A DNA stretch of 64,000 nt. Source: Parcubacteria group bacterium CG10_big_fil_rev_8_21_14_0_10_36_14. GTDB taxonomy: Bacteria > Patescibacteriota > Patescibacteriia > GCA-002772895. How positions within the stretch are numbered: the stretch's first letter is position 1; every line of letters begins with the position of its first letter. The stretch lies in assembly GCA_002772895.1 (NCBI GenBank), contig PFCS01000050.1, positions 6,728 to 70,727 of the forward strand, written 5' to 3'. This document shows, piece after piece, positions 14,321 through 62,178 of this stretch. The translations under genes were made by a program, and so were the position numbers. Below the pieces are notes generated by a model. The model had not been told where the DNA came from, did not search any database, and saw only the letters and a program-made list of their open reading frames with translations.

Positions 14321-15001
14321 TTAGTACTCAATATCATTTTTTGAACTCATTAAGCTTACATTAGAAACTTCCATCAAATTTTGTAGTTCTTTTACAAAAT
14401 TTGTAGCTTCTTTATCATCAATAAATCTAATGTTGAATGTGAAATCAAGTGCCTTCCCTTCTCCACGAGTTCCTATGTTTATTATGTTGGCATATTTTAA
14501 ATATTTATCAAAAATCGGCTTATATGCATTATTGTCCGAGGAGCTGTTCAAATTAAACATTAAAACATAATCATAATTCTTCATTGAGCCAAAGTCTATC
14601 TTAGACAAAACTAACACAACAATCATTATAAGAATGGTTGCAATAATAGCAACTGTATAGTTCCCGGTACCGACTGCCATGCCCGTCACTAATGCCCAAA
14701 AAACAAATGCGATGTCTCTAGTTTCTTTAATCGCAGTCCTAAAACGAATAATAGTAAAAGCACCTAATAGAGTAAACGCGGCGGCGATGCTGTTTCCTAT
14801 TACCATCATTACAATAGAGATGAGGATACTCATCAAGATAAGCGTAAATACAAACGAACGCGAATAAGAAAGACCCGAATGTGTCTTTTTGTATACTAGC
14901 GCTATTAGTACCGTTAAACCAAAAGACAATCCAATGTTTACTACAATAGTGATTGGATTAATTGATAAACCCCCTCCTGCTCCTTGTAAAATATCAAACA
15001 T
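14321..15001 (-). CDS. DUF4956-family membrane protein (partner of the VTC-domain protein).
   Basis: Four hydrophobic helices in the N-terminal 140 aa, then a soluble tail. Sequence pattern (FTLLGAFTIIRFRTAI, AFVFWALVTGMAVGTG) and the adjacency to a VTC-domain gene match the known DUF4956/VTC pairing. Confidence 0.6.
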   Translation of the reverse strand: MFDILQGAGGGLSINPITIVVNIGLSFGLTVLIALVYKKTHSGLSYSRSFVFTLILMSILISIVMMVIGNSIAAAFTLLGAFTIIRFRTAIKETRDIAFVFWALVTGMAVGTGNYTVAIIATILIMIVVLVLSKIDFGSMKNYDYVLMFNLNSSSDNNAYKPIFDKYLKYANIINIGTRGEGKALDFTFNIRFIDDKEATNFVKELQNLMEVSNVSLMSSKNDIEY

Positions 15002-15005
15002 ATTT

Positions 15006-15767
15006 TTAGTATTTTAATTGATTATTTTTTTTAATTGTATCTATCCCGTAACAATACTTTGAAAACGCTTCACGATTTAATTCATGCTTTTGGATAACCT
15101 TATGCAACCACCCTGGTAAAATATTATTATACTTTATTTCCATTATTGCTAAATCACGAAAAATTGGATTAAAATTTTTTCTATCTGTAAAACTTCCCGC
15201 GCCAGCCGCTTCAATATCATAGTCAAAGGTTATGCGTAAATTATTATCAAAACGCGAAACTAACGGATTCCTCTTATAGCGAACTAACACTAATGGCAGC
15301 ATTGAATAGCTCCGCTGTCTTACCGTAAATTCTTCAAGAATATCACTATCTCTATCATTTTTTTCAAAATGCAATACCTCACCGCTTATCGCTCTTCTAT
15401 AATTGTCTATGCTTAAAAAAGTTCTATCTTTTACAACGATAGCATCCGACTTCCTTTTAATTTCTAAAAAAATTGTTTGTGGATTATCTAACTGCTCACC
15501 GTAAGTTCTTAAGCGAAGTTTTGCCCTATTTTTCATTCCGCTAATTTTTTCATTGTAGCATCTAAGTGTTGGGCTGTCAAAGTATATACTATTTACAGAA
15601 TACCCATCCTGTCCCAATTCTAAAAATGGATCACGCACTAAATGATTTCTAAGTAGAACGCTATACATTTGACCCATTTCTCTTTTAGGTAAAAAATATT
15701 TAAATTCAAACCTCTGGAATCTATTTTTAATTTTTTGGTTGTCTACACCTACTTCGCTATCGTTCAT
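15006..15767 (-). CDS. VTC-domain (polyphosphate-polymerase-like, CYTH/triphosphate-tunnel fold) protein.
   Basis: RFQRFEFKYFLPKRE...SIYFDSPTLRCYNEKISGMKNRAKLRLRTYGE...FLEIKRKSD matches the VTC-domain pattern (cf. ERHEYKYLI) of alternating charged beta strands. Confidence 0.6.
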   Translation of the reverse strand: MNDSEVGVDNQKIKNRFQRFEFKYFLPKREMGQMYSVLLRNHLVRDPFLELGQDGYSVNSIYFDSPTLRCYNEKISGMKNRAKLRLRTYGEQLDNPQTIFLEIKRKSDAIVVKDRTFLSIDNYRRAISGEVLHFEKNDRDSDILEEFTVRQRSYSMLPLVLVRYKRNPLVSRFDNNLRITFDYDIEAAGAGSFTDRKNFNPIFRDLAIMEIKYNNILPGWLHKVIQKHELNREAFSKYCYGIDTIKKNNQLKY

Positions 15768-17279: not shown

Positions 17280-17282
17280 AAT

Positions 17283-17957: not shown

Positions 17958-17959
17958 AT

Positions 17960-30342: not shown

Positions 30343-30399
30343 ATTATAATAATGTAGTATTCATATGATATTCTTATAAAATACACTAATCTGACCAAT

Positions 30400-30428: not shown

Positions 30429-30454
30429 TATATTATATAATAACATCAAAAATT

Positions 30455-31648
30455 ATGCAAAATAAGCGAAAAATTGCCGTTTTAATCATCAACCGAGCCA
30501 ATTATGGCCGCCTAAAACCGGTGTTAAGAGCAATTCAAGAACATCCGGACTTAGAATTGCAATTAATAGTCGGCTCATCAATGTTGCTTTACAGATTTGG
30601 AAATGACATTGATTATATTGAGCGAGACGGCTTTAAAATTTCAGCTAAATTCAACATGATTATTGAAGGTGGCACACCAACAACAATGGCCCAATCTGCC
30701 GGTTTAGGGCTTATGAATTTGCCAACTATCCTAGAACAACTTAATCCTGATATTTTTTTAGTTAATGCAGACCGATTTGAAATTCTGCCAGCCGCTATTG
30801 CCGCCGCATATATGAACATCACCTTAGCACATACTTTGGGCGGAGAAATAACCGGCACAATTGACGAATCTGTGCGCCATGCGGTTACAAAACTGGCGCA
30901 TATTCATTTCGCTGCGCATAAACCGGCGGCAGAAAGAATTGCCAGCATGGGCGAAGATCCAAATAATATATTTATAGTCGGAAACCCTTCTTTGGATATT
31001 GCAAAAACAATCTCTGAAAAAATAAATATTGAAAAGTTTATAGATATTAGTCGAGGTACAGGATCCCCAATAGATTTTTCTAAACCATATATTCTTTGCT
31101 ATCAACATCCAGTAACTACCGAATATCAAGATGCATATAAACAAATTATTACTACTCTTGAAGCGTTGAGAAATATAAATATACAAACAATCATGCTTTG
31201 GCCAAATCCTGACGCCGGTACAGATATGCTTTCAAAAGGAATTAGAGTATTTAGAGAAAAAAATCCGGAATCACTAATCCACTTTTACAGAAGCTTTGCC
31301 AATGAAGATTATTTGAGCTTAATAAAAAACGCCTCCTGCATTGTCGGTAACTCATCATCAGCAATAATGGAAGGCGGATTTTTCGGTACACCCGCAGTAA
31401 ATATCGGCACCCGTCAGCAAGGACGCGAGAAATGTATCAACGTTGTAAATACAGGATATAGTAGAGAAGAAATAGAAAACGCCATAAAAGGACAGCTGGC
31501 ATACGGAAAATATAATCCCGATTATTTTTTCGGCGACGGACAGAGCGCCAAGCGTATTGCCGAAATTCTAGCAAACCATAACGTCCAGATACAAAAACAA
31601 TTTAATAAAGAAAAGGGCTTTCACTTGATAAAAAACTATATTAATTAA
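30455..31648 (+). CDS. neuC: Second UDP-GlcNAc 2-epimerase, hydrolysing type (NeuC/LegG family).
   Basis: KIAVLIINRANYGRLKPVLRAI...DIFLVNADRFEILPAAIAAAYMNITLAHTLGGEITG...HAVTKLAHIHF is colinear with the first NeuC-like copy. 397 aa. Confidence 0.8.
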   Translation: MQNKRKIAVLIINRANYGRLKPVLRAIQEHPDLELQLIVGSSMLLYRFGNDIDYIERDGFKISAKFNMIIEGGTPTTMAQSAGLGLMNLPTILEQLNPDIFLVNADRFEILPAAIAAAYMNITLAHTLGGEITGTIDESVRHAVTKLAHIHFAAHKPAAERIASMGEDPNNIFIVGNPSLDIAKTISEKINIEKFIDISRGTGSPIDFSKPYILCYQHPVTTEYQDAYKQIITTLEALRNINIQTIMLWPNPDAGTDMLSKGIRVFREKNPESLIHFYRSFANEDYLSLIKNASCIVGNSSSAIMEGGFFGTPAVNIGTRQQGREKCINVVNTGYSREEIENAIKGQLAYGKYNPDYFFGDGQSAKRIAEILANHNVQIQKQFNKEKGFHLIKNYIN

Positions 31649-31676: not shown

Positions 31677-32625
31677 ATAATATTTTTTTCACTTTCTCAG
31701 CAATGAAAATTTCCGTATTTTTCATTGAGTCATAAGTTGCACCACCGATGTGCGGAACAATTATTAGATTATTATGCGACTTAGTATATTCAAGAAGCAA
31801 ATTACCTTTTAAAAATTCTCCACCAGCGGTTTCTTCTGCCATAACATCAAGCCCTGCTCCGGCAATTTTCTTGGCCTTTAAGGCATTTAAAAGCGCGCTT
31901 TCATTTATAATTTTTCCCCGCGAAGTGTTTACTAGATATGCGCTTTCTTTCATCATCTTAAATTCCCGTTCACCTATTAAATCAACCGTCTCTTCATCCA
32001 AAGGCACATGCACGCTAATAAAATCAGCCCGCGACAGAAGCTCTTCAAAAATTGCTGACTCTGCCGCGCCACGCTCAATTTCCTCTTGGTTAACATACGG
32101 ATCATAGGCAACAACATTCATAAAAAACGCATTTCCATATTGAGCAATAATTTTTCCTAGCCGTCCAAAACCAATTATTCCTAAAGTTTTACCACGCAGC
32201 TCTATACCCTTAAAACTATCACGGTCCCAATTTTCTTTTTTCACCGACTCATATGCATCAGGTATATGCCGGATTAAAGCCAAGAACAGTCCCCAAGACA
32301 ATTCTGCAGTAGCTGTTATTGTATTTAAAAATTCCGTCTCCCCCTTTAAGCTTGCAACTTGCACGCCATGCTTCCCTGCCTCTTTCATATCAATATGGTC
32401 CAGCCCGGTTGTCGGACAAGCAATAATTTTTAAATCTTCCGCTGCATCTAAAATCTCTTTATCAATTTTATGTTCTAAACGGATAACTAAAATATCAGCG
32501 TCTTTTACGCCTGCCAGTAATTCACCTCGCGATAATTTCTTTTCTGCAAAAACATCTCCCACCTCTTGATAAATTGCAAGCGCCTCCTTACTGTAATCGC
32601 CGGGTTCACTAATTAAAATTTTCAT
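31675..32625 (-). CDS. D-isomer-specific 2-hydroxyacid dehydrogenase (SerA/GhrB/PdxB-like, NAD-binding).
   Basis: GKTLGIIGFGRLGKIIAQYG (GxGxxG), ...ISVHVPLDEETVDLIGEREFKMMKESAYLVNTSRGKIINESALLNALK...GAGLDV is the D-2-HADH catalytic domain pattern. Confidence 0.8.
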   Translation of the reverse strand: MKILISEPGDYSKEALAIYQEVGDVFAEKKLSRGELLAGVKDADILVIRLEHKIDKEILDAAEDLKIIACPTTGLDHIDMKEAGKHGVQVASLKGETEFLNTITATAELSWGLFLALIRHIPDAYESVKKENWDRDSFKGIELRGKTLGIIGFGRLGKIIAQYGNAFFMNVVAYDPYVNQEEIERGAAESAIFEELLSRADFISVHVPLDEETVDLIGEREFKMMKESAYLVNTSRGKIINESALLNALKAKKIAGAGLDVMAEETAGGEFLKGNLLLEYTKSHNNLIIVPHIGGATYDSMKNTEIFIAEKVKKIL

Positions 32626-35312
32626 AAGTTTGTAATTTTAGACAAAACGTCAGTCGCTATATCCTGACCATTATTTTCAAAAGTATTCTTTCCAAGCTTT
32701 GGAAATCCTCCGCCAAAAAATTCTTTCTTCTGATAGACGGATATTCCCGTCTGGTTGCCGGAAATTATATTGTCATATATTTTTGGTTCAGACAAGTCTT
32801 TCACAGCAATACCCATAACGCATCCATTAAGCTTATTACTAAAAATATCCGGATTAGAGTTTTCTCCCAAACTGATGCATTTATCGCCTGAACTTTTTAC
32901 TTCATTATTCGATATTTCCACGCTGGAACCGGAAATATCAATTCCGTCATTACCGTTACCATCAAAAATGTTGTCATAGATCTTACCACTTATAAAATCG
33001 CCGTCCAAACCGTCAAATCCATTTTTATAAAAATAAGAGTCCACTATTTCTACTTTTGCATTTTTAACATTCAATCCGTCATCCCCGCCGGCATATTTAA
33101 ATTGACAATTTTTTATTGAGATATCCGAACTGTGGCTTGCCAGGGCACCGGAAAAATGAATTCCATTTACGCGAGTATCCCCGCCATATTCAAATTCAAC
33201 ATATTCAAATTCACTCTTCTCCGGCACATCCACTATGCCAAAATTTCCCCAATAATCGTTGGAGTTCGCCGATAAAAATTTAATCGGATAGTCCTTACTT
33301 CCTTTAGCAATAACTGGGCTATAAGAACCGATTGATACTCCTTTTGCCATATAAAAAATTGCACCCGGCTCTATTTTTAGATGAATCCCCTTCGGGACTA
33401 TTAGCGTTTTATTAATATAATACGTACCCGCCGAAACATATGCGTCTCCATTTCCCGTAGCTTTAAACGAAGGATTTTTAGATATAAACTCATTAAGAGA
33501 TAGGTTGATATCATCTAAATTATTAAAATTACTATTATCTATATAAATTACTTCCGAACCCACTTTTTTACCGGTTAAAGAATTATCCAGCTCCATGTCA
33601 ACCGCAAAATCATCCGAATAAAATCCGGTTCCAATGCCTGCGGTAAAAAATATTTTATGGGTTACAGGCTGTAGAATAAAGCCTGTTCTTACATATTCAT
33701 CGTCATACTTATCAGCAGGAGGAACAAGTTTGGAAGATAGCACTATTTTCTGTTCTCCAAATTTAGCTTCTCCGTCCTTGTTAACAGTGTCTTTTTCTAA
33801 AAGAATATCGGCCGAGGTTAATTTTCCATCCATATCGCTGTCATAATAAGCGCTTACCAGAAAACCAGGAACAAGCCCGCTTATTTTTATTTCTTTTATC
33901 GTCATATCCACCGCGCTGTTTACCGTTATATCAGCCTCTGCAATTTCATAGTTTAAGAATGAATTTTTGTTATAGATAACCTTTGTAAAGGCTTCCGATT
34001 TTTTAAGATATTCTTTTATGAAATTAAAATTACTTTCTATCAAGCTCCTTGTTTCCTTATAACCCTTGATAAAAGTGCTATTTGAAAAATTCTTTTTCGA
34101 ATCCTTAAAAAATTCAATGCGGACGCTGTTGTATAAATCATCTATAAACTTTAAATCATCTTTAAGATTATCTTTGTCGCTAACATAATCCCAAGCCCTT
34201 TGGTTTATTTCAGTGGCAAAATCTGGAGATTCTAAAACGCGCGTTATAAGAGGATTAAAGAAAAGATAAGGAGAACCGATTGAAGCCAGGTCATTTCCCT
34301 CTGATTGCCAAGTAAAAAATTTAAATTTTCCATTTGTATTATCATAATACAAGTTCATGTTATGTCTCCAGTCCTCATGATTTCCACCAATTAAAAGTGT
34401 GTGCAAATACCACTCCATAAAACTTTTCTTATCTACAATATTAAAAATATTGTCATGAAATTCTTCTTGGTCTGCCTGGTTTACTAAATATGTAAGGCGA
34501 GCAATTGCCACGTAATTATCCGGTCTCTCGCCCGGATCAGCAACTCTTTTATCCCAATAATAAGGATCTTCAAAAATATATTTTTCATTTATATACCTTT
34601 CCGTAAAAAAATCAGTATCTCCAGAAAGTTTGTTTGTTTCCAGAAACTCTTTGCTCCATTGATTTATCTTATAATAAACTCCATATGCCTTGCCATTTAT
34701 CCTAAGCAACACAAAATCGCTGTCCAACACCTTTAATCCAATCTTTTCCGCTCTATAGTTATTGAACGGTTCAAGTAAATCACCGCCCACAATAAGATTT
34801 ATCGCACTCGTCCCTTCAAAAATCGCAGAATCACTAAATCTTATGCGCCATGATTTTTTATCATATCTCCAATGAAAATCAGAATTGCCTCTATATCTTA
34901 CCTCAACATTATAACTCTTACCCCCATATGAAAACTTGGCATTTATATACTTTTGATTTTCCTCAACAAACATCGCACCTTCTTCGGTTGGCAACGAATC
35001 ATTTATTTTCTTCCAATCTTTCTCGTCTATTATCAAATCGTAAACAGGCAGGTCTGGTTTCTTAAAAGAATAAATCAAATACGGCGCATCTTGGATCTTG
35101 CGCACAATTTTATCGGCCCATTTTGAATAAGGTGCTGGAAGTATGCTAAAAAGATATCTTTTTTTAATGCCATAATCATAAAAAAGAGATACAAGCACAA
35201 CCAAAACAATCAGATTGGCCACAAAAAGGCACCTGAAAAATATCTTTCTAAATACAGGGCTTCTTAATTTGTTATTTAATAACTTTATATATCTTAATAT
35301 CATCTGAATCAT
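32622..35312 (-). CDS. Large membrane-anchored/secreted protein: N-terminal CotH-family (atypical kinase) domain fused to a C-terminal right-handed parallel beta-helix (pectate-lyase/NosD-like) repeat domain.
   Basis: N-terminal TM segment (FFRCLFVANLIVLVVLVSLF). CotH-like core reads FSYGGKSYNVEVRYRGNSDFHWRYDKKSWRIRFSD...INLIVGGDLLEPFNNYRAEKIGLKV...LRINGKAYGVYY. C-terminal beta-helix repeats read NGFDGLDGDFISGKIYDNIFDGNGNDGIDISGSSVEISNNEV...GISVY. Paralog at 55840-58659. Confidence 0.65.
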   Translation of the reverse strand: MIQMILRYIKLLNNKLRSPVFRKIFFRCLFVANLIVLVVLVSLFYDYGIKKRYLFSILPAPYSKWADKIVRKIQDAPYLIYSFKKPDLPVYDLIIDEKDWKKINDSLPTEEGAMFVEENQKYINAKFSYGGKSYNVEVRYRGNSDFHWRYDKKSWRIRFSDSAIFEGTSAINLIVGGDLLEPFNNYRAEKIGLKVLDSDFVLLRINGKAYGVYYKINQWSKEFLETNKLSGDTDFFTERYINEKYIFEDPYYWDKRVADPGERPDNYVAIARLTYLVNQADQEEFHDNIFNIVDKKSFMEWYLHTLLIGGNHEDWRHNMNLYYDNTNGKFKFFTWQSEGNDLASIGSPYLFFNPLITRVLESPDFATEINQRAWDYVSDKDNLKDDLKFIDDLYNSVRIEFFKDSKKNFSNSTFIKGYKETRSLIESNFNFIKEYLKKSEAFTKVIYNKNSFLNYEIAEADITVNSAVDMTIKEIKISGLVPGFLVSAYYDSDMDGKLTSADILLEKDTVNKDGEAKFGEQKIVLSSKLVPPADKYDDEYVRTGFILQPVTHKIFFTAGIGTGFYSDDFAVDMELDNSLTGKKVGSEVIYIDNSNFNNLDDINLSLNEFISKNPSFKATGNGDAYVSAGTYYINKTLIVPKGIHLKIEPGAIFYMAKGVSIGSYSPVIAKGSKDYPIKFLSANSNDYWGNFGIVDVPEKSEFEYVEFEYGGDTRVNGIHFSGALASHSSDISIKNCQFKYAGGDDGLNVKNAKVEIVDSYFYKNGFDGLDGDFISGKIYDNIFDGNGNDGIDISGSSVEISNNEVKSSGDKCISLGENSNPDIFSNKLNGCVMGIAVKDLSEPKIYDNIISGNQTGISVYQKKEFFGGGFPKLGKNTFENNGQDIATDVLSKITNL

Positions 35313-37104
35313 ATACTTTTATTAACCAGTCTTCGCCTTCCAGACTGCTATTTTTTATAAAATCATAAATGCCTTCACTTTTATAGGCACCAAAATACAA
35401 ATAATCAATCTTATATTTATTGATCAAATAATGGATATTGCGCGGATACGCCATATACAATTTCGATATGTCGCCAAGCTTTTCCGCAATAAGCTTTTCT
35501 GCTGTTTTCTCATATTCTGGATCTTTTTTGAATTGGCTACCAATTCTTGTATCACTAAAATAATCTCCAAATAAATACAGCGAATCTTTATTTATTATCC
35601 CATCAAAAACATCTTGCGAAACATTAAACAGCTTATGGACAATAATCCACCGGTCATAAAGCTCTTCGGAAGATCCAGGAAACATCATTGGGTCTCCGTA
35701 CATTACTTTGCCAGAAGTATATACGGGCACCAAAAAATTTATAAAAAGCGACGGAGAAACAACGACCGCATCTTTTTCTATATTTTTATCCATCCATTCC
35801 AGCGAATTACTAATATTTTTAGGGATAGTATGAGCCGGATAATCCATTATCCCCCTATATATATTTACATGAACTGCGCGTGCTGTTATTATAAGCGCCA
35901 ACAAAATAAAACATCCGGTCACAATCTTTCGCCTCGTCGGATATTTCGCTTCCAACCACTTATATAAAGTATAGGCAAAGGCTATCCAAGCCAAAGCAAA
36001 TCCGTAATAAAATTGATGGTAATACCAATTTGTAGCAAAAGGCGAATATCCTCCAAAAAGCTGGATATTAAGCAGGAATATTGGCGCCAATGCAAAGCCT
36101 ATTAAATATATGGCAGTCTTTTTTTCTTTTATTGTTTTCCAAATAAGCAAAGCAAAAGCAACATACAGTAGATATTCGAAAACATGCCGTCCCAAGCGGA
36201 GCGTCCTGCCAAATTCGCCCCCTAAACGCAAGAATATGTCCGTTGACCACGGAAGGGACTTAAGAGCAAAGAAATTAAAGAAAAATAGCGATGAAATCAG
36301 CATGGCCAGCATTAAAATCCAAAAAATTCTTTTTGCCACCAAATGGTCTTTAAATAATAAAAATAATATCATCATTATCCCCAAAGCAGTCCAAATGTAC
36401 ATAGCGCTTGTTGGAAAAAAATAAACGAGCAAACCACTAAATATTCCGGCTAAGGCTATATACAACTTCTTTCCTTTTGTTATGGCTAAATATGTAAAAA
36501 GAAAGGTTAGAGAAAAAGGAATAAGCCCCGGCAATACCGATACGCTGTCATATTTATTCGTAAGGATGTGGATTGGCGGGCTACCCAAAAAAGTCAGCGT
36601 TCTTACAGAAATCTTTATCTGCTCCAATGTAATGGGAAATATCAGATAAAAAATATTTGCGGCTGAAGTAAAAACAAGAGAAGAAAAAATGCTAAAATAT
36701 CGGTTGCCGGTTATATTTTTTATAATCAAATAAAAAATTAAAAAGGTAAAAAAACCCACAATAAAATATCCCACCAAATAAAGATACTGCAGGGAGCCAA
36801 ATAGAGCAACCAGAGGAAAAAGAAGCCATGCATTATAATATGTACTCCAAAGCGCAGGCGCGTGCATATACTCATATGTTGCGCCGTCAGACCCCAGCCA
36901 ATGCCCATCCAAAAGATCCCTTATTTGCGGAGCAATAAAAGTGATTGGATCAGGCGCTCCTGGCACAAAATCACTATAAGGTAAACCATATTCTTTCAAT
37001 TTGAAAAAAGCTGACGCTTTAGTTAAATCAAAAATACAACCCGCAACTATGGCGGATAATAATACTGCTACTATAAGTAATGTCTTTTTCTTTTTTTTAT
37101 CCAT
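35272..37104 (-). CDS. Large polytopic membrane protein with C-terminal extracytoplasmic domain; candidate GT-C-fold glycosyl/oligosaccharyl transferase or polymerase.
   Basis: 610 aa, more than 12 predicted TM helices, then a ~200-aa soluble C-terminal domain (YPAHTIPKNISNSLEWMDKNIEKDAVVVSP...). No diagnostic motif recognised. Overlaps the downstream gene by 41 nt. Confidence 0.45.
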   Translation of the reverse strand: MDKKKKKTLLIVAVLLSAIVAGCIFDLTKASAFFKLKEYGLPYSDFVPGAPDPITFIAPQIRDLLDGHWLGSDGATYEYMHAPALWSTYYNAWLLFPLVALFGSLQYLYLVGYFIVGFFTFLIFYLIIKNITGNRYFSIFSSLVFTSAANIFYLIFPITLEQIKISVRTLTFLGSPPIHILTNKYDSVSVLPGLIPFSLTFLFTYLAITKGKKLYIALAGIFSGLLVYFFPTSAMYIWTALGIMMILFLLFKDHLVAKRIFWILMLAMLISSLFFFNFFALKSLPWSTDIFLRLGGEFGRTLRLGRHVFEYLLYVAFALLIWKTIKEKKTAIYLIGFALAPIFLLNIQLFGGYSPFATNWYYHQFYYGFALAWIAFAYTLYKWLEAKYPTRRKIVTGCFILLALIITARAVHVNIYRGIMDYPAHTIPKNISNSLEWMDKNIEKDAVVVSPSLFINFLVPVYTSGKVMYGDPMMFPGSSEELYDRWIIVHKLFNVSQDVFDGIINKDSLYLFGDYFSDTRIGSQFKKDPEYEKTAEKLIAEKLGDISKLYMAYPRNIHYLINKYKIDYLYFGAYKSEGIYDFIKNSSLEGEDWLIKVYDSDDIKIYKVIK

Positions 37105-37110
37105 ACTGCT

Positions 37111-38520
37111 CTACTTTGTTGGGCGCAAATAATTAAAAACTCGCTTTAATATAAGCTTCAAATGCGCGGGCGATCTTAAATCCCGTAAAACGTTAAAAAC
37201 AATTCTTGGCCTTAACCAAAACCCCAAAAAAATCTTCCTATGCCATTTTTTTAAAGTTTCTCTACTAATACCCTTTGGACAAACAGTAATATTATCAAAG
37301 CGTATCTTGTCCCAATCAACGCCATCAATCCGCCCACTTTCTTTGAGCCATGTATACATTTCCGATCCTGGGAGTGGAAGATAAAAATTAAACCCAGCCC
37401 TATCCAGCATAAGCTTTCTAGAAAATTCATAAGTTTGCCTCAAATCATCCTCATTTTCCTCGGGATAACCGATTATAAAAGCACCACCAGTCCTAAATCC
37501 CATTTTTCTAATGGCTTTTATTCTTTCTTCAACCATTTCTTTTTTTATGTGCTTATTCATATGGTCCATAATCCTCTGGGAACCAGACTCAATTCCTACA
37601 TGAATTGCATAAAACCCAGCTTTTTTCATTAATTTCAAAAGCTCGTCATCCAGCGTGTCCAAGCGAAGACCATTTGCACCAAAAAGCGAAATATTAAAAT
37701 TATTAGCCACTATTTTCTCAAGTACCTCTACTGCACGCGCCCTATGGGCTGTAAAATTATCATCCATAATATGAAATTCCTTGATACCATATTTTTCTAT
37801 CGCCCATTTCATTTCCTCTATAATATTATCCGCGCTTCTCATCCTCATATTTCTACCAACCACCGACTTTGAGGCGCAAAAAGTACAATTATAAGGGCAT
37901 CCTCGCGAAGTTACCAAATAGCCGATAGGGAGCTGTTTAAAGAAACTTCCGGCTGGTGCCTCGGGATATTCACCGGGTGGCATAAAGTCCCACGCCGGAA
38001 ACGGAAGACTATCTAGGTCTTCTTCAAAATAAACGGGATTAAAAAAAACTTCCCCTTCGCTTCTATAAACAAGTCCGGGAATATGGCTTAGGGGTATGTC
38101 TTTATTTTGAAATAATTTTTCAAGGAGCATCTTTAGACCTTTTTCTCCTTCACCCTTAAAAGCAAAGTCAATTTTATCAAAGTAGCCCATCAATTCTTTT
38201 GAATCTATAGCTGAAGCATGCGGACCACCAATTACCACAAGGACTTCTGGATTAGCTTCTTTTGCTACATTAATTTGCTCTTTTACTATTTTTATATTGT
38301 TTGAATACACCGTAACCCCTATGACATCCGGCTTTTTTTCCAAAACATATTCTTTAAATTTTTCTGGCGATACTTGTTTTAGGGTACAATCAAGAATTTC
38401 AATATTACTCCATCCATCTTTTCTTAAATATGAAGCAAGATAGCCCAAAGAAAGAGGCGGAGTTATTGCATAACCAAGAGTGCTAAAGGGTTTAACAAAT
38501 AAAATTTTCTGCTCTTTCAT
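37111..38520 (-). CDS. B12-binding-domain radical SAM enzyme (class B rSAM), paralog 2.
   Basis: N-terminal B12-binding-like region (ILFVKPFSTLGYAITPPLSLGYLASYLRKDG) and cluster motif TSRGCPYNCTFCAS. 469 aa. Confidence 0.8.
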   Translation of the reverse strand: MKEQKILFVKPFSTLGYAITPPLSLGYLASYLRKDGWSNIEILDCTLKQVSPEKFKEYVLEKKPDVIGVTVYSNNIKIVKEQINVAKEANPEVLVVIGGPHASAIDSKELMGYFDKIDFAFKGEGEKGLKMLLEKLFQNKDIPLSHIPGLVYRSEGEVFFNPVYFEEDLDSLPFPAWDFMPPGEYPEAPAGSFFKQLPIGYLVTSRGCPYNCTFCASKSVVGRNMRMRSADNIIEEMKWAIEKYGIKEFHIMDDNFTAHRARAVEVLEKIVANNFNISLFGANGLRLDTLDDELLKLMKKAGFYAIHVGIESGSQRIMDHMNKHIKKEMVEERIKAIRKMGFRTGGAFIIGYPEENEDDLRQTYEFSRKLMLDRAGFNFYLPLPGSEMYTWLKESGRIDGVDWDKIRFDNITVCPKGISRETLKKWHRKIFLGFWLRPRIVFNVLRDLRSPAHLKLILKRVFNYLRPTK

Positions 38521-38529
38521 AAAAAATCA

Positions 38530-39258
38530 TTACTTTTTAAATTTATTTATTACCATTCCGTACTCTTTTAGAGTTTTAATTAAATTCATCTTACTCTTCC
38601 CTTTTTTTAATCCGTAATTATAAACAAGAGGGCATTCATCAATTTTCTTAACAAATTTTCTTAATTTTAATAAAATCTCTAAATTGGCCGCAAAAGAATT
38701 TGTAGTAATAAAATTATTCCCATAAAATGCCAATGCTTTTTTTAGAATTTCTGCCCGATACGCGCGATAAAAAATAGAATAGTCCGTCACATTTGGCAAG
38801 TGGACCAATAACTTGACAATACTATTTACTACATTGCTACCAATGGTGCGGTACAACGGAAAGTTTTTATAACTTCCGCCCGCTATGTAGCGGGAACCTA
38901 TAACTATATCGCTTCCTAAATTTATTTTTTCTATCATCTCAGGCATTAAGGAAAGCTTACTCGTATTATCCGCTTCCATAATCAAAACGATATCGTCGTC
39001 CTCCGCATTAACACAAGCCGCCGTAATACCATCAAAAAAAGTCCTTGGTACGCCCAAATTTTTAGCGTGAACAAGAATTTCTAAATCCATCTGATTTTTA
39101 AAATTCATTGCTAGTTCTTTTGTTTTATCCGTGCTTCCATCGTCAACTAAAATTACTTTTTTATCAAAAATTAATTTTATATTCTTAATGCTAGACAATA
39201 AATCAACGACATTCTCGTCCTCATTATAGGCAGGGATAATTATAAATATTTTTTTCAT
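38530..39258 (-). CDS. Polyprenol-phosphate sugar synthase, GT2 (DPM1/GtrB-like).
   Basis: KIFIIIPAYNEDENVVDLLSSI...VILVDDGSTDKTKELA...VLIMEADNT are DPM1 hallmarks. 242 aa. It lies immediately downstream of the B12-rSAM gene (9-nt gap). Confidence 0.8.
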   Translation of the reverse strand: MKKIFIIIPAYNEDENVVDLLSSIKNIKLIFDKKVILVDDGSTDKTKELAMNFKNQMDLEILVHAKNLGVPRTFFDGITAACVNAEDDDIVLIMEADNTSKLSLMPEMIEKINLGSDIVIGSRYIAGGSYKNFPLYRTIGSNVVNSIVKLLVHLPNVTDYSIFYRAYRAEILKKALAFYGNNFITTNSFAANLEILLKLRKFVKKIDECPLVYNYGLKKGKSKMNLIKTLKEYGMVINKFKK

Positions 39259-55839: not shown

Positions 55840-58659
55840 ATGCTCAAAATAATAATTGAAAAGCACAAAAAGAAACTGCTGGCATGCGCGGTGTTATTTA
55901 TTATCGGTATTTTATCTGCCAATTTATTTTTCTTGGGAATATATATAAGAAACAACAAAAATATCTTGATTTTTGATTCTGCAGTACAATATCTCCTACC
56001 TGTTTATCGATTTATGCGCAAAAGTTATAATAACGCGATAAATACGTTCTATCTGCCAAAAACAATAGGGGCATCGGAAATACCCCACTACAAATTGACG
56101 ATTAAAAAAAATCAGCTGGAAAAATTAAATAAAAATTTGCCTGAGTCGATATCCGATGCCGTTTTTAGCGGAAGTGTTTTCTTGGAGGACGAATATAAGA
56201 AAACAGTGCCCGCAATCTTTTCTTATGGTGACAAAAAATACGAAGTAGAGGTACATTACCGAGGTGACAACCCAAACCATTGGACCAAAGAAAAAAAATC
56301 TTGGCAAATAATATTCAGCCAGGAAAACTTATTTAACGGCCAAGAAGTGTTAAAACTTATATTGCCCATAGACCGAGGTTATCTTGCGGAGGCTCTAAAT
56401 GCTTATCGGGCAAAAAAAATGGGTCTATTGGTGCCTGCGGACAATTTTGTAAATTTAGAAATAAATAAAAAAAATGCTGGCGTATATTACCAAGTCGAAG
56501 ATTGGTCAAAAGGATTTTTGGAAAAACAACAAGTGCCGGCCGACTCCAGTATTTATACGACCAATGACGGTCTTATTAGCCTCAGAAAAGAAGAAAACCG
56601 CCAAGATACATCAGCCTTTGAAGATATAAATCTTTGGAAAAAAAATATATCTGATAAATTATTTACTTATAATAATTTTTCAGATATAAAAAAACTGGTC
56701 GAAATACTGCAAAGCCAAAATAAAGACGAAGCATACAAAATATTGCCACAAATACTTGATATGGAAAAGTTTTACAGCTGGACTAACGTTGCCCTATTGG
56801 TTTCAGGAGGCCATCAGGGAGGTAAAGGCAATATGCGTCTATACTTTAACAATAGTAGCGGAAAATTTGAACCAATCCCTTGGGATGTAACAATAAGAGA
56901 TAGCGATGCGCTTTTTGAAGACTGGCAAAGTATCATCAATAACTTTATATATTCAAATAAAAAATTATTTTTTGAACAAAAAAAATCCCTGTGGAATTAT
57001 TTAAGTAACGAAGATAATTTAAAAGACGACCTAAGCTTTTATGATAAACTTTATGAAACAACACGCCCAGCTTTTTACGATGATTGGATAAAAGTAGACA
57101 ATAATTTAACCTTTGATAAAAAAATAAAAGAAATGCGCGATATTATTAAAAATAGGTTTAGTAATCTAAAAGATCTTTATAAAATTGATAATTCAAGCAT
57201 GATTATAAATTATGACTCCGATATAAATCTGATAACGGCAACGACTAAAGCGGATAATTTCGCCGGCATAATGCTAAAAAGCCTTAAACTACCGACAGAC
57301 GACAATATGTTTGTTGAAGCATTTGATGATTCCAATAATAATCTTAAACTTGATAAGGACGATAAAATCATAAAAACCGGCTACATCAATAAAAATGACA
57401 ACACAATAAAAGATATTAATAAATTAATTTATGATAAAGATGAAGTGGCCATATTCATAAAAATTATTCCTTATGGAACACAGCAAAACGGCTTAAATCT
57501 TAAAAATGTAAAAATAAAATTTGACAATGCAATCACCAAAAAAGATATTGATATAAAAAGCATAGTCTTATCAGACGACACCTCTTTTAATTATCTTCCC
57601 AAGACTATCTATAGTCCTCGGCAATTTGTAAACGAAAATCCCATATTTAAAACAGATGGAGAAAAAATATTTCTACCCGCTGGCTCTTATACCATCACAA
57701 AAAATATAATAATTCCGCAAAAATCCCAGTTGATAATACAGCCTGGCGTTGTCCTAACCTTTTATCCAAAAATATCACTCATATCTTACAGCCCTGTTTC
57801 GGCAATTGGCTATTCCGATAGTCCTATTATATTCCAATCCGCCTATCAAGGGCAACCGTGGGGATCTTTTGGCATAGTTAATACCGAGAAAGAAAAAAAC
57901 AAGCTACAATTTATAAATATATCCGGTGGTGGGAGTTCTTATATAAACGGTATTTTCTTTAGTGGAATGTTATCAGCCTACCATGCCGACCTTGAATTAA
58001 GCGATAGTTTAATTCAAAACAGCTCATCGGATGACGGCGCAAATGCAAAGTACGGAAATGTGGTAATAAAAAATAACAGATTTATAAAAAATAGTGCGGA
58101 CGGCTTGGATATAGACTACGCAAAAGGAGAGATAAGTAATAATTATTTTAGTAGCAATGGCAATGACGGCATAGATATCTCCGGTTCTTCAATCAGTATT
58201 AAAAATAATACAATACTTGCATCAGGGGACAAATGTATAAGCGTAGGAGAGAATTCAAAAGAGCCGGTTATTTTTAATAATATTTTAAATGGATGTAATA
58301 TAGGAATAGAATCAAAAGATTTATCAACCCCGGTTATTTTGAATAATGTCATTATAAATAATAATATAGGCATAAATGCCTATAGAAAAAAAGAGATTTT
58401 TGGTGGCGGATTTGGAAAAATATATAACAATATTATCTGGGACAATAAAGAAAATATAAAAACGGATGAATACTCACAATTCGAAGCTGATTACAACGAC
58501 ATTGAAACCAACTATTCAGGAGAGTATAACTTTTATGAAGAGCCATCTGAAAATTATTATAAACCGGGTTTAGAAAATTATCACGGTAAAGGAAACCGGG
58601 ACATTCTAAAAAAATATCTTGAAATTAATCTTGAGGAAGCTCCGGTAGGGCTAATGTAA
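55840..58659 (+). CDS. CotH-family domain fused to a right-handed beta-helix repeat domain (paralog of 32622-35312), membrane-anchored/secreted.
   Basis: TM anchor LLACAVLFIIGILSANLFFL. CotH-like FSYGDKKYEVEVHYRGDNPNHWTKEKKSWQIIFSQENLF...LKLILPIDRGYLAEALNAYRAKKMGL. Beta-helix repeats ...DGLDIDYAKGEISNNYFSSNGNDGIDISGSSISIKNN...NIGINAY... are colinear with the other copy. Confidence 0.65.
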   Translation: MLKIIIEKHKKKLLACAVLFIIGILSANLFFLGIYIRNNKNILIFDSAVQYLLPVYRFMRKSYNNAINTFYLPKTIGASEIPHYKLTIKKNQLEKLNKNLPESISDAVFSGSVFLEDEYKKTVPAIFSYGDKKYEVEVHYRGDNPNHWTKEKKSWQIIFSQENLFNGQEVLKLILPIDRGYLAEALNAYRAKKMGLLVPADNFVNLEINKKNAGVYYQVEDWSKGFLEKQQVPADSSIYTTNDGLISLRKEENRQDTSAFEDINLWKKNISDKLFTYNNFSDIKKLVEILQSQNKDEAYKILPQILDMEKFYSWTNVALLVSGGHQGGKGNMRLYFNNSSGKFEPIPWDVTIRDSDALFEDWQSIINNFIYSNKKLFFEQKKSLWNYLSNEDNLKDDLSFYDKLYETTRPAFYDDWIKVDNNLTFDKKIKEMRDIIKNRFSNLKDLYKIDNSSMIINYDSDINLITATTKADNFAGIMLKSLKLPTDDNMFVEAFDDSNNNLKLDKDDKIIKTGYINKNDNTIKDINKLIYDKDEVAIFIKIIPYGTQQNGLNLKNVKIKFDNAITKKDIDIKSIVLSDDTSFNYLPKTIYSPRQFVNENPIFKTDGEKIFLPAGSYTITKNIIIPQKSQLIIQPGVVLTFYPKISLISYSPVSAIGYSDSPIIFQSAYQGQPWGSFGIVNTEKEKNKLQFINISGGGSSYINGIFFSGMLSAYHADLELSDSLIQNSSSDDGANAKYGNVVIKNNRFIKNSADGLDIDYAKGEISNNYFSSNGNDGIDISGSSISIKNNTILASGDKCISVGENSKEPVIFNNILNGCNIGIESKDLSTPVILNNVIINNNIGINAYRKKEIFGGGFGKIYNNIIWDNKENIKTDEYSQFEADYNDIETNYSGEYNFYEEPSENYYKPGLENYHGKGNRDILKKYLEINLEEAPVGLM

Positions 58660-58673: not shown

Positions 58674-58704
58674 AGAAATGCCACTATTTTTTAGTGGCAT
58701 TTTT
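58674..58704. terminator. Intrinsic terminator hairpin between convergent genes (CotH paralog on +, GT-C membrane protein on -).
   Basis: aaatgccacta-ttttt-tagtggcattt is an 11-bp perfect stem, extendable by G-U and A-T pairs, with a 5-nt loop and a T-tract downstream on +. The minus-gene stop codon (cta at 58684-58686) lies inside the left arm. Confidence 0.65.
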
Positions 58705-60033
58705 TATTTTATAAGCAAACCCATAGACTCCTAGGGCAATATATATGTATATGTACGGATTGACTGGTTGCCGGAAACGGGAATAAGACGCTACGCCTGT
58801 CGCCAGGACAAAATAATAAATTAAAAAAAGAAGGAATACCGCACTTATTCTATTGTCCTTGAAGCCAAATATCCAATAAAGCACACCAAACAAAGCGAAT
58901 AAATTCAGTATCAAAAGTATTGCCTTGCCACCCAAAAATATGACCCCGCCAACTCCCCTATATTGTAGTACGGGAATTTTTAAAATATCTTTCCAGGAAT
59001 AAAACCAAGTTTCAAAAACTACTCTTTGCTGTTCAAGCGGTGGATATATAGCAGCGGCTGTAGTAAAATAACTATCACCCAGAAAAAAAGGAATCATATT
59101 TGATAAATGAACCTCCATAAAAGCAATGGGATGAGCGGCAATGTACTTTAAAGTAACTAATTTTAGATCATTCATTTTTATGTCACCTATTTCTGCCACA
59201 TTATCACCGACATTTAAATATGTCATCGTCAAATATTTTCTAAAAGCTACGGTTTTGCTTGCTGAAGATAAATCAAAAGTATTAAATAAAACTTTATTCC
59301 TTGCGGCCCAGGGAGAGATCAAAATTATAAATGCTGCAACCATCAACAATATGGCAACAAAATAGCGGAAAAAAGAGCAAAAATTTATTTTTTTAATTAC
59401 TGCTAAGGAAAAAATTACAAAAACTAATAAAATAAATTGCGCGACCGGTCTCACATAATTAAGACATGCCAATAACGCGCCTGTCACAAGAAAAGCTAAA
59501 GGGTTGACCTGGCGGTTTATGAGAATCTTTTTTACAAAAATATAAACGCTAACTACCAATATAAAAGTAAACAATGTCTCGCTAAGCAACTGATTATTCC
59601 AATAAATCACAGCTGGTTCGCACGCATATATGGCCGCCGCTAACAGAGCTATTGATTTTTTTCGCAAGAGCAAAATACACAACTTATAAATAATAACTAT
59701 AACAAAAAGCGCAAGTAAATCTTGGAATAAAACTGTGGGCCAGGCTACGGGAATAAAACGGTAAAAAATAGAAATAACAAAGGGATAGCCCGGCGTCCTA
59801 AAAAACTCATTCTCAAAAGGGGACGTTTCGTTTCTTGAAAAAACACTATGTTCAGATAGATTCTTTGCCAGTGTCAGATACTGCTCAGAATCCTCGCTGT
59901 TATGAGGATAAAAACCCTTATCTCCGAAATTATGTAAAATAAACCCAAAAAAAATTATGCGCAAAATGAGAGCCACCGCTAAAACAAGTAGCAAGCCTCT
60001 ATTTTTCTTAATGAATTTTTTAATTCTAAGCAT
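58684..60033 (-). CDS. GT-C-fold membrane glycosyltransferase, GT39/PMT/ArnT-like (polyprenyl-phosphate-sugar dependent).
   Basis: N-terminus LLLVLAVALILRIIFFGFILHNFGDKGFYPHNSEDSEQYLTLAKNL is the characteristic first TM plus acidic loop-1 (D-E) region of PMT/ArnT-type enzymes. About 11 TM helices, 449 aa. Confidence 0.6.
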   Translation of the reverse strand: MLRIKKFIKKNRGLLLVLAVALILRIIFFGFILHNFGDKGFYPHNSEDSEQYLTLAKNLSEHSVFSRNETSPFENEFFRTPGYPFVISIFYRFIPVAWPTVLFQDLLALFVIVIIYKLCILLLRKKSIALLAAAIYACEPAVIYWNNQLLSETLFTFILVVSVYIFVKKILINRQVNPLAFLVTGALLACLNYVRPVAQFILLVFVIFSLAVIKKINFCSFFRYFVAILLMVAAFIILISPWAARNKVLFNTFDLSSASKTVAFRKYLTMTYLNVGDNVAEIGDIKMNDLKLVTLKYIAAHPIAFMEVHLSNMIPFFLGDSYFTTAAAIYPPLEQQRVVFETWFYSWKDILKIPVLQYRGVGGVIFLGGKAILLILNLFALFGVLYWIFGFKDNRISAVFLLFLIYYFVLATGVASYSRFRQPVNPYIYIYIALGVYGFAYKIKNATKK

Positions 60034-60042
60034 AATAGATGC

Positions 60043-61452
60043 TTATTTAAACTTCATTTGGGTTGACGGCACTTTGGCACCTCTACCAAAACCCAAAATC
60101 CACTTAATAAAAAATTTTGATATTGCTTTTATCGTATTCAAATCGTAAACGCCTATTTTATAAAAACGCCTCAAAATATATTTTGGACGAAAATAAAATG
60201 TTTTAAATGCTTTTTTATAAAATTCTTCCACTTTTTCCGAAGCAACGGTAGGCAATTCCATAATTGACTGAGAAAAATTATATTGGGTCCAATCCTCCGT
60301 TTTTAAATACCCCTCTTCTTTTGCCCAGTAGTACATTTCTGTCCCAGGATAAGGCGTGGCAATATTAAAAACCGCTAAATCAGGATCGAGCTCCACGGCG
60401 TAATTTAAAGTTTTTTGCATTGTTTCTTCTGTCTCTCCCGGATTGCCAAACATAAAAGCCAACCTACAATTAATCCCAACTTCTTTCGTCATTTTTACGA
60501 CTTCCTCAACGCGTGGCAAATTTATACGTTTCCGAATATTTAATAAAATTTGCGGGTCAGCCGACTCAACACCATACATTATTTGATGGCAACCTGCCTT
60601 TTTTAAAATATCCAAAGTTTCTCTATCCACACAATCAACACGCGAAAAACAAGACCATGATATATTAACCTTTTCTGCGATAACCAGTTCACAAAATTCT
60701 TTTATATTTCTTTTCACCGCAGTAAAAGTATCATCGTAAAAAGATATTTCTCGAATTCCATGGTTTTTTTGTAATAATTTTATTTCATCTAAAAGACGAC
60801 GCGCTGTAAAATATCTTATTCGCGGACCAAAGTTCTGATAACAATAGGTACATGTACCCGGGCAACCTCTCGTCGCTATAAAACCAAAAGCCGGCAATCG
60901 TTTGTATGCTCCTAGGGCTGGATGATACTTTTCCATCGGTAAAAGATGAGTAGGGAGAAATGGTAAAATATCCAAATCTACTAAAAATGGGCGTCTTTCA
61001 TTATGGATAATTTGCTGATCTTTTTTATAAGATAATCCCAAAATTTCGCTCAAGGATTTACCGAAAACAAGCTCGTTCATAGCAAATTCTCCTTCATCAC
61101 GAATAACATAATCTACAAAATCATTCGATAAAACCTCGTCAGGTCTTAATGTGGAATGGACTCCACCAAAAACAATTTTGCTATCTGGAAAAATTTCTTT
61201 ACAAATTTTAGCGCTTTCCAAAGCATTATTTATAATTCTAGTTGTGCCGGTAAGACCAATAAAATCCGGCTTTTCTTTTAATCCTTCTAAACGCAGTTTC
61301 AACAACTCTGCCGTCAATTGTTCTGCACGCGCATCTATCATAATAACTTTTCGTGGCCCTTTTCCAAAAGAACTCCCGCAACTGACAATAAACCTATGGA
61401 TGGGTAGCACGGATTTATAATTGACCATGCACTTATATTGTCTATAATCCAA
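60043..61452 (-). CDS. B12-binding-domain radical SAM enzyme (class B rSAM), paralog 3.
   Basis: ...DFIGLTGTTRIINNALESAKICKE... (B12-binding-like region) and cluster motif ATRGCPGTCTYCYQ. 469 aa. The precise start is uncertain (alternative internal Met codons exist). Confidence 0.75.
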   Translation of the reverse strand: MDYRQYKCMVNYKSVLPIHRFIVSCGSSFGKGPRKVIMIDARAEQLTAELLKLRLEGLKEKPDFIGLTGTTRIINNALESAKICKEIFPDSKIVFGGVHSTLRPDEVLSNDFVDYVIRDEGEFAMNELVFGKSLSEILGLSYKKDQQIIHNERRPFLVDLDILPFLPTHLLPMEKYHPALGAYKRLPAFGFIATRGCPGTCTYCYQNFGPRIRYFTARRLLDEIKLLQKNHGIREISFYDDTFTAVKRNIKEFCELVIAEKVNISWSCFSRVDCVDRETLDILKKAGCHQIMYGVESADPQILLNIRKRINLPRVEEVVKMTKEVGINCRLAFMFGNPGETEETMQKTLNYAVELDPDLAVFNIATPYPGTEMYYWAKEEGYLKTEDWTQYNFSQSIMELPTVASEKVEEFYKKAFKTFYFRPKYILRRFYKIGVYDLNTIKAISKFFIKWILGFGRGAKVPSTQMKFK

Positions 61453-61482
61453 GGAGGATTAATTAATAATACCTTCATAGCT

Positions 61483-62178
61483 TTAATCAAAAAAATTAAA
61501 TTTTATAATACACCACAGGGCGCTAATAGCATCTTTCCAATTTATTTTTTTTCCCTCTTCATATGTCCTACCTGAATAGGAAATACCTACCTCATATATA
61601 CGAAATTTATTTTTTGCAATCTTGGCTGTGATTTCTGGTTCAAATCCAAAACGATTTGATTGTAAAGTAGGACCTATTGTTTCTATTACTTTTTTTACAA
61701 AAACCTTATAACACGTTTCCATGTCAGTTAAAGTTAGATTGGTAAACATATTTGAAAGAAGTGTTAAAAATTTATTTCCCAATAAGTGCCAAAAATATAA
61801 AACACGATGGCTTCCTCCGCCAATAAAACGCGAACCATAAACAACATCTGCCCGCCCTGATAAAATCGGCTCCAAAAGTTTTGGATATTCCCCCGGGCTA
61901 TACTCTAAATCAGCATCTTGAATTAAAAATATATCTCCGGTTGCCTCTTTGAAACCGCGTCTCAAAGCAGCGCCCTTACCCTGGTTCTTTTCTTGATAGA
62001 AAACCCTGTATCTATTCTCTAAACTCTTCAAAATATCACGCGTACTATCAGTTGAAAAATCATCAATTAAAACTGTCTCTTTTTCTATGTCCCCCAAATC
62101 CACAGCATCAATCCTCTCTAATATTTTGAGAATTGTTTTTTCTTCATTATAAATTGGAACAATTATTGATAATTTCAT
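61483..62178 (-). CDS. Polyprenol-phosphate sugar synthase, GT2 (DPM1/GtrB-like).
   Basis: [23 protein letters not shown]...[15 protein letters not shown]...[12 protein letters not shown] are DPM1 hallmarks. It lies directly downstream of a B12-rSAM gene, the same arrangement as 37111-39258. Confidence 0.8.

Follow-up and report, generated by a model that had tools for sequence, protein, structure and literature searches.

An aspartate-less CotH subtype linked to a polyphosphate-polymerase module in Patescibacteria

Two genes in a surface-glycopolymer locus of Parcubacteria group bacterium CG10_big_fil_rev_8_21_14_0_10_36_14 encode members of an undescribed, widespread CotH subtype that lacks the catalytic aspartate and is tied to a polyphosphate-polymerase module. 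The window is the whole 64,000-nucleotide stretch analyzed (GenBank assembly GCA_002772895.1, contig PFCS01000050.1, positions 6,728 to 70,727 of the forward strand), and the two genes are referred to as open reading frame (ORF) A and ORF B (Table 1). The family occurs mostly in genomes of the candidate phyla radiation (CPR; Patescibacteria), where it is part of a conserved three-gene module composed of CotH, a VTC-domain protein, and a DUF4956 membrane protein.

ORF A and ORF B lie where a first-pass annotation, made from the DNA letters alone, had placed two CotH/β-helix proteins of ~900 residues, and the motifs quoted there are present. The CotH motif reads FSYGGKSYNVEVRYRGNSDFHW..KKSW in ORF A and FSYGDKKYEVEVHYRGDNPNHW..KKSW in ORF B, and both proteins contain NGNDGIDISGSS. 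Profile searches, which the annotation had proposed as a check, uphold both domain assignments. Pfam CotH (PF08757; gathering cut-off 23.8 bits) matches ORF A with E = 1.6e-13 (51.4 bits) and ORF B with E = 3.4e-19 (70.0 bits), Beta_helix (PF13229) matches them with E = 1e-12 and E = 2.3e-12, respectively, and all four matches exceed the Pfam gathering scores. The NosD and Pect-lyase_RHGA_epim profiles overlap the Beta_helix match in both proteins, and the sole match in a PHROGs search is a short tail-spike stretch in ORF A. An AlphaFold2 model of ORF B calculated from an alignment of 28 family sequences (mean predicted local distance difference test score (pLDDT) of 88) consists of an N-terminal helix, the CotH domain, a β-sandwich, and a β-helix of ~12 rungs. 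Comparison of this predicted structure with known folds confirmed the CotH atypical-kinase fold, and the right-handed β-helix fold was confirmed along with the PF13229 match.

Each protein has a single hydrophobic segment located at the N terminus (aa 24-42 in ORF A and 13-31 in ORF B), in agreement with the transmembrane or signal anchor that had been annotated. Five or six Lys/Arg residues precede this segment, and the positive-inside rule therefore predicts that the remaining ~850 residues are outside the membrane. The sequence of ORF B recurs with 100% identity as a hypothetical protein (locus tag COU51_04135) in a metagenome-assembled genome (MAG) of the Parcubacteria group. The public gene call for ORF A (P0137) has 866 residues and starts at GTG 35222. 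The 896-residue form that starts at ATG 35312 is missing from the public gene index because the public call begins at this downstream GTG. The ATG start produces a 41-nt overlap with the upstream gene. The GTG start would cut off the Lys/Arg-rich N-terminal tail, and the longer form fits the positively charged N terminus that is usual in the family.

The CotH active site is altered in both proteins. In Bacillus subtilis CotH, either D228Q or D251A abolishes activity (PMC7821199), and the identities of these two residues were mapped through their 23-residue spacing. The only Asp pair with this spacing in Bacillus cereus CotH is D224/D247 (NFDGFVHN...PWD). Alignments by phmmer, MAFFT, and hhalign place F223-D224...N229...W246-D247 opposite H325-Q326...N331...W348-D349 of ORF B and H312-E313...N318...W335-Q336 of ORF A. 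The equivalent of the catalytic Asp228 is thus Gln326 in ORF B and Glu313 in ORF A. The equivalent of the metal-binding Asp251, located in the PWD motif, is kept as D349 in ORF B and is Gln336 in ORF A. ORF B also retains K152-K153-S154. Neither ORF has the catalytic-loop Asp of an active Bacillus-type kinase. Inspection of the catalytic residues had been suggested by the first-pass annotation, and the outcome is that the general-base Asp is absent from both copies and the metal-binding Asp is lost in ORF A only. The second Asp is also replaced by Gln in P0128, a protein from another genome that is 49% identical to ORF A. These two proteins belong to a small clade with Glu at the first position and Gln at the second, and the acid appears to have moved within the site.

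An HMMER scan of 1.84 billion representative proteins returned 2001 CotH relatives at E ≤ 1e-3 and 227 at E ≤ 1e-30. Its best hits were combined with those of an earlier homologue search to align 173 subfamily sequences. At the catalytic-Asp position, 127 of the 173 have Gln and a single one has Asp. His comes directly before this position in 153/173, the catalytic-loop Asn is kept in 168/173, the PWD Asp is kept in 154/173, and an additional His-Trp pair stands ahead of the KKS motif in ~163/173. H147 and H325 (ORF B numbering) are invariant histidines specific to the subfamily. Conservation of at least 90% is found at 30 of 317 columns in the CotH domain and 44 of 299 in the β-helix, and is low in the anchor and linker. 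Judged from these alignments, the proteins are a distinct aspartate-less CotH subtype, here called HQ for the His-Gln pair that occupies the catalytic-loop position. The strong conservation of the site and its new invariant histidines suggest changed chemistry or ligand binding more than decay.

The subtype is genetically linked to a polyphosphate polymerase. VTC (PF09359) and then DUF4956 lie directly 3' of the CotH-β-helix gene on the same strand in all four of the first homologue loci. A scan of species-representative genomes with a 12-sequence alignment added 20 further loci, and tblastn and phmmer detected both VTC and DUF4956 in 20 of 25 distinct loci and never one without the other. Of the 22 loci reached through CotH, the pair is directly 3' in 14 and within 10 kb in 3, and 3 end at contig boundaries too soon for a call. 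When three DUF4956 homologues served as independent starting points, the order was CotH, VTC, DUF4956 in 3/3. The VTC proteins keep the basic tunnel motifs, which we take to be the equivalents of the Vtc4 catalytic residues. A B12-binding radical S-adenosylmethionine (SAM) gene accompanies the triad in 9/25 loci and a glycosyltransferase family 2 (GT2) gene in 8/25. A tblastn search of a plasmid collection for the Clostridium perfringens plasmid CotH/VTC locus retrieved only two Bacillales records. The literature search found no paper joining CotH to CPR bacteria and no paper characterizing bacterial VTC homologues.

The subfamily proteins range from ~430 to 970 residues and consist of CotH alone, CotH plus β-sandwich, or CotH plus β-sandwich plus β-helix. 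One locus (L015) encodes the β-helix (569 residues) and CotH (588 residues) as separate adjoining genes before VTC-DUF4956, and this arrangement supports functional coupling of CotH and β-helix. L015 is from a Patescibacteria genome, and the gene order at 5493-16865 is a PMT_2 membrane glycosyltransferase, a 588-residue protein that has no Pfam match, β-helix, CotH, VTC, DUF4956, and an ABC exporter. ABC exporters also adjoin the module in L003 and L004. More than one CotH paralogue or module copy per genome recurs (L025, L026, L027). In L027 (555-6678) a 556-residue CotH gene directly precedes a 965-residue CotH-β-helix gene, and two contigs of Parcubacteria MAG SURF_57 carry the module (L025 and L026).

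The β-helix is the best-conserved part of ORF A and ORF B, with 45% identity between them. Ten Asp/Glu and five Lys residues are invariant on successive rungs in nine aligned β-helix regions, and the conserved motifs are DDGxNxK, DxxDxD, NDGIDxSGS, GDKCxSxGE, KDxS, and YxKK. The β-helix likely carries a charged substrate groove. The top structural neighbors of the predicted β-helix are AlgG, AlgE4, K1 lyase, capsule depolymerases, PL6 lyases, and GH28, and PfbA and pertactin-like adhesins are also among the neighbors. Identity to AlgG/AlgE4, PL6 lyases, GH28, and phage capsule depolymerases is only 10-17%, and only the generic Beta_helix, NosD, and Pect-lyase_RHGA_epim profiles were matched, with no family-specific profile. 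The best match in a profile search of the PDB is rhamnogalacturonase A (1rmg), a weak match (E = 0.07) whose alignment pairs NDGID and GDKC with the active-site rungs DGID and KDEC. Of the GH28 motifs, NDGID is present, GDKC stands in place of GDDC, and there is no GHG or RIK. DPH(D/E), which we take to be the catalytic motif of mannuronan C5-epimerases, is absent from ORF A and ORF B despite the presence of AlgG and AlgE4 among the top fold matches. Membership of the β-helix in GH28 or the C5-epimerases is not supported by these motifs.

The CPR proteins differ from the characterized CotH in location and architecture as well as in the active site. The Bacillus CotH spore-coat Ser/Thr kinase (PF08757; PDB 5JD9/5JDA) has the catalytic Asp, whereas the corresponding pair is His-Gln in ORF B and His-Glu in ORF A. 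Bacillus CotH works in the mother-cell cytoplasm, whereas ORF A and ORF B are membrane-anchored, are predicted to be outside the cell, carry a fused β-sandwich and β-helix, and belong to organisms that do not form spores. The likeness to the glycan kinases Fam20B and POMK is in concept only, namely a kinase fold that acts on glycans outside the cytosol, and no sequence or fold match to them was obtained for ORF A or ORF B. Kinases of the Fam20B/POMK type keep the catalytic Asp and use lumenal ATP.

One of the closest known systems is the Gram-positive Pel locus. The triad of CotH, polyphosphate polymerase, and DUF4956, together with a DUF4832 glycoside hydrolase, constitutes the accessory genes of these loci (PMC7112168). 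In Streptococcus intermedius, deletion of CotH lowers Pel production and aggregation and deletion of DUF4956 raises Pel; the CotH protein (SIR_1594) is reported to have its kinase catalytic residues intact, and the authors report having found the triad only in Pel loci (PMC12345266; bioRxiv 10.1101/2024.04.20.589940). This restriction does not hold for the CPR loci. The S. intermedius accessory genes SIR_1594-1591 contain the same three-gene module in the same order as the CPR loci, and attachment to an exopolysaccharide locus is common to both. The Pel-locus CotH is secreted or surface-located and has a β-sandwich after the CotH domain, as in the CPR family. SIR_1594 is reported to keep the catalytic residues, whereas the CPR subfamily lacks the Asp, and the glycan-active partner is a separate hydrolase in Pel loci but a fused β-helix in the CPR proteins. 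Pel loci contain pel genes (pelDEADAFG), whereas Pfam scans of all 54 window ORFs of at least 150 residues detected no PelD, PelE, or PelG family. The triad is dispersed in the window, with ORF A 17 kb and ORF B 40 kb from the VTC-DUF4956 pair.

The window VTC protein can also be compared to the yeast VTC complex, in which the Vtc4 polymerase is coupled to a membrane channel. The window protein matches PF09359 with the basic tunnel motifs kept, and its gene is directly before the membrane-protein gene with a 4-nt gap. Unlike in yeast, no membrane helices are fused to the catalytic domain, and DUF4956 has no detectable fold match to the yeast channel and resembles MgtC plus an ACT domain. An AlphaFold2 model of DUF4956 (pLDDT 75) has five helices and the ACT-like domain, and the protein has no sequence match in the PDB.

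The interpretation preferred here, which is tentative and has a little less than an even chance of being correct, is that both proteins are non-canonical enzymes that work outside the cytoplasm, handle phosphate or polyphosphate, and have as their target a surface glycopolymer, which the β-helix holds or cuts. Each would be a single-pass membrane protein with its CotH fold, variable β-sandwich, and β-helix of the polysaccharide epimerase/lyase/hydrolase type outside the cytoplasm. The cytoplasmic VTC enzyme would make polyphosphate from ATP, and VTC and DUF4956 would bring it, or phosphoryl groups taken from it, to the membrane surface. The CotH domain, in which the putative phosphate- and Mg-binding Lys, Asn, and Asp are kept and the general-base Asp is swapped for His-Gln, would bind the phosphate donor outside the cell and transfer or tether phosphate or polyphosphate to the surface glycopolymer. 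The β-helix groove would hold, and possibly trim, this polymer. A bolder and considerably less probable version is that HQ-type CotH is a new kinase-fold enzyme outside the cell that uses polyphosphate in place of ATP as a donor, which VTC and DUF4956 would make and pass across the membrane, and that it phosphorylates or polyphosphorylates β-helix-bound cell-wall glycopolymer. If this were true, a polyphosphate donor would explain the donor supply of many secreted bacterial CotH "kinases," and VTC plus DUF4956 would be the bacterial counterpart of the eukaryotic VTC synthase-translocase.

Several observations weigh against a phosphate-handling enzyme, and each chemical step of the mechanism is a proposal. 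The B. subtilis kinase is inactivated by this same change to Gln at the catalytic position (PMC7821199), and the CPR domain may be catalytically dead. In the window, neither ORF A nor ORF B adjoins the VTC-DUF4956 pair, and 2 of the 22 CotH-side loci (L010 and L021) have no such pair within the sequence at hand. Polyphosphate export is the weakest link of the proposed mechanism, because the Foldseek matches of the DUF4956 model in the PDB are only ACT-like or ribosomal-protein-S6-like, involve the C-terminal domain, and include no VTC channel, and because NCBIfam relates DUF4956 to MgtC. The fold search neither supports nor rules out a VTC-like channel. The S. intermedius authors suggest that polyphosphate may remain cytoplasmic (bioRxiv 10.1101/2024.04.20.589940).

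A somewhat unlikely alternative is that the β-helix is the enzyme and CotH a non-catalytic pseudokinase for binding or scaffolding, so that an anchored epimerase, lyase, or hydrolase would trim, modify, or release the surface polymer made by the locus itself. The missing catalytic Asp, the higher conservation of the β-helix, its invariant acidic and Lys residues on successive rungs, the polysaccharide enzymes among its top structural neighbors, and the weak alignment of NDGIDisGS/GDKC with DGID/KDEC of rhamnogalacturonase A all fit this explanation. It also has a parallel in Gram-positive Pel loci, where CotH, VTC, and DUF4956 occur with a separately encoded glycoside hydrolase, and the hydrolase of the Firmicutes module, SIR_1591, is active (PMC12345266). 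However, the CotH domain is as constrained as the β-helix, has gained H147 and H325, and keeps the Lys, Asn, and Asp, which is unlike a decaying site. The second GH28 acid is Lys (GDKC, not GDDC), and the AlgG-type DPH motif is missing. Approximately 40% of the subfamily has no β-helix yet keeps the HQ site and the VTC linkage, and a pseudokinase leaves the obligatory VTC-DUF4956 partnership unaccounted for.

The first-pass annotation had proposed an extracytoplasmic glycan kinase or glycan-binding module. The CotH fold, the β-helix, and the glycan-locus setting stand, whereas the missing catalytic Asp in both copies counts against the kinase part. A classical ATP-dependent kinase that phosphorylates a surface-glycan sugar or surface protein presented by the β-helix is therefore very doubtful, even with a true CotH fold and with the KKS Lys, catalytic-loop Asn, and PWD Asp kept in ORF B. 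Unusual catalytic loops do occur in some working atypical kinases. The absence of the general-base Asp extends beyond both copies to 172/173 relatives, and ORF A has also lost the metal-binding Asp. The predicted location outside the membrane is a further difficulty, as bacteria are not known to have an ATP pool there. It is just as improbable that the proteins are surface adhesins or host-attachment proteins of an episymbiotic CPR cell, in which both domains only bind the partner-cell surface like the Mucorales CotH invasins or PfbA. CPR bacteria commonly live attached to a host (PMC11665869), the proteins are large, surface-anchored, and present as several diverged copies per genome (the window and L027), and adhesins are among the β-helix neighbors. 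Neither the close association in operons with a cytoplasmic polyphosphate polymerase and with glycan-synthesis genes nor charged-residue conservation of the buried-site type, as opposed to the variable surfaces usual in adhesins, is expected of such a protein.

The two genes lie on opposite strands and arose as paralogues long ago. The proteins are 35% identical end to end (E = 6e-129), and the large inverted repeat around a central island that had been annotated exists at the protein level but not in the DNA. A nucleotide alignment had been proposed to reveal recent duplication or inversion potential, and no meaningful DNA similarity was found. There is no megablast match between the two genes, the best blastn piece is 74 nt at 73%, and the longest exact word in common is 12 nt. 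In the codon alignment, 50% of the nucleotides are identical, and where both proteins have the same residue the third codon position agrees in 53%. Repeat scans of 30-64 kb revealed nothing beyond short AT-rich chance matches. This lack of DNA similarity leaves no substrate for inversion, and the megablast, blastn, shared-word, and repeat analyses rule out a DNA-level duplication or inversion substrate. Recent duplication is also ruled out by closer relatives elsewhere; ORF A is nearest to P0128, and ORF B is nearest to P0002/P0003 from other genomes (47%). GC content is flat across the window, and by composition there is no central island.

The window is one large surface-glycopolymer locus with nearly all genes on the minus strand. 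It encodes a Bac_transf initiating transferase, a Wzx-type flippase, several GT2 and GT4 glycosyltransferases, NeuB, cytidylyltransferases, and 2-epimerases (two nonulosonic-acid sets), aminotransferases, and a CDP-alcohol phosphatidyltransferase. A tRNA scan found none. A cassette of GT2, B12-binding radical SAM, and polytopic membrane protein genes is duplicated, and each copy is ended by a CotH gene. Identity between the paralogues is 31% for radical SAM and 28% for GT2. The two membrane proteins have no detectable similarity to each other and no homologues in related loci even at E = 0.01. The 449-residue membrane protein has a weak PMT_2 match (E = 8e-4, below the cut-off), and a GT-C glycosyltransferase label for it is tentative. 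The cassette GT2s match best to the polyprenyl-phosphate sugar transferases AglJ, ArnC, PpgS, and dolichyl-phosphate hexose transferase, all below cut-off, and the cassettes weakly resemble the usual two-step system that adds sugars outside the membrane. A two-way terminator-like hairpin separates the convergent ORF B and 449-residue membrane-protein genes, and ORF B has its own 122-nt AT-rich upstream spacer; ORF B is probably a single-gene transcription unit.

The locus has other features of its own. A third B12-binding radical SAM gene is at 19053-20657, in addition to the two cassette copies. The best NCBIfam matches of the B12-radical SAM proteins include Sden_1168 and PhpK (P-methyltransferase families), HpnJ, and BchE, far below cut-off. 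Two TagF-like CDP-glycerol glycerophosphotransferase paralogues (20762-22132 and 25248-26615; 36% identical) suggest that the locus makes a teichoic-acid-like phosphodiester polymer. In L003 and L028 the module likewise has TagF-like genes next to it. Nonulosonic-acid genes at 16134-18994, 29638-31648, and 46921-48009 encode one NeuB, two cytidylyltransferases, and three UDP-GlcNAc 2-epimerase paralogues, and the epimerase gene at 30455-31648 is one of the few plus-strand genes in the window. Class-I SAM methyltransferase genes are unusually numerous, with at least nine in the locus, several of them paralogous at 32-35% identity. A UDP-glucose/GDP-mannose dehydrogenase-family ORF (13489-14280; 263 residues) has the N-terminal and central domains without the C-terminal domain, and no fragment of the missing part was found nearby. 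The 505-residue protein encoded at 53191-54708 has a FemAB/Acetyltransf_6-like N-terminal part and a DegT-type aminotransferase domain, possibly a fusion of a sugar aminotransferase with an acyl/aminoacyl transferase. On the margin of the glycan locus, at 7164-9155, FG-GAP repeats are fused to a subtilase (Peptidase_S8), and a TPR protein is encoded next to it.

Table 1. Positions of the CotH-fold proteins, their domains, and associated features in the window
Feature	Position	Strand	Details
ORF A, CotH-fold/β-sandwich/β-helix protein	32622..35312	-	896 aa
ORF A N-terminal membrane anchor (about aa 24-44), predicted	35181..35243	-	6 Lys/Arg before segment; hydropathy and positive-inside rule
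ORF A CotH-fold domain (aa 122-432)	34017..34949	-	profile and alignment
ORF A β-sandwich linker, poorly conserved (aa 436-595)	33528..34007	-	alignment to ORF B model
ORF A right-handed β-helix (aa 599-894)	32631..33518	-	DDG/DGLD/NDGID/GDKC rungs
ORF B, CotH-fold/β-sandwich/β-helix protein	55840..58659	+	939 aa
ORF B N-terminal membrane anchor (about aa 13-35), predicted	55876..55944	+	KHKKK before segment
ORF B CotH-fold domain (aa 122-446)	56203..57177	+	profile and model
ORF B β-sandwich linker (aa 447-585)	57178..57594	+	model
ORF B right-handed β-helix (aa 586-885)	57595..58494	+	model and alignment
VTC-domain protein, triphosphate-tunnel polyphosphate-polymerase type	15006..15767	-	253 aa, no membrane segment; PF09359 E = 2e-40
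DUF4956/MgtC-like membrane protein	14321..15001	-	5 predicted helices and C-terminal ACT-like domain; E = 1.7e-16
Cassette adjoining ORF A	35272..39258	-	GT2 38530-39258; B12-binding radical SAM 37111-38520; 10-segment membrane protein 35272-37104
Cassette adjoining ORF B	58684..62178	-	GT2 61483-62178; B12-binding radical SAM 60043-61452; 9-segment membrane protein (449 aa) 58684-60033
Two-way terminator-like hairpin	58674..58704		13-bp stem, T-runs on both strands; between convergent ORF B and 449-aa membrane-protein gene
Class-I SAM methyltransferases	22136-22963, 28737-29636, 40348-41154, 41269-42219, 44185-45120, 45172-45918, 49955-50572, 52470-53189		

Secreted and surface CotH proteins are widespread in bacteria and fungi, and an activity is known only for the intracellular Bacillus spore-coat kinase. 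The CPR subfamily bears on how an extracellular kinase fold obtains its phosphate donor. It provides three handles on this problem, which are the Gln that replaces the general-base Asp with its neighboring His, the polyphosphate-polymerase and membrane-protein partners, and the fused or adjacent β-helix. Together they give a specific and testable hypothesis of polyphosphate-dependent modification of surface glycopolymers. If the CotH domain is instead inert, the automatic label "CotH kinase family protein" on such genes overstates what is known. In either case, the CotH-VTC-DUF4956 module is extended beyond Gram-positive Pel loci to ultrasmall bacteria with a barely known envelope chemistry.

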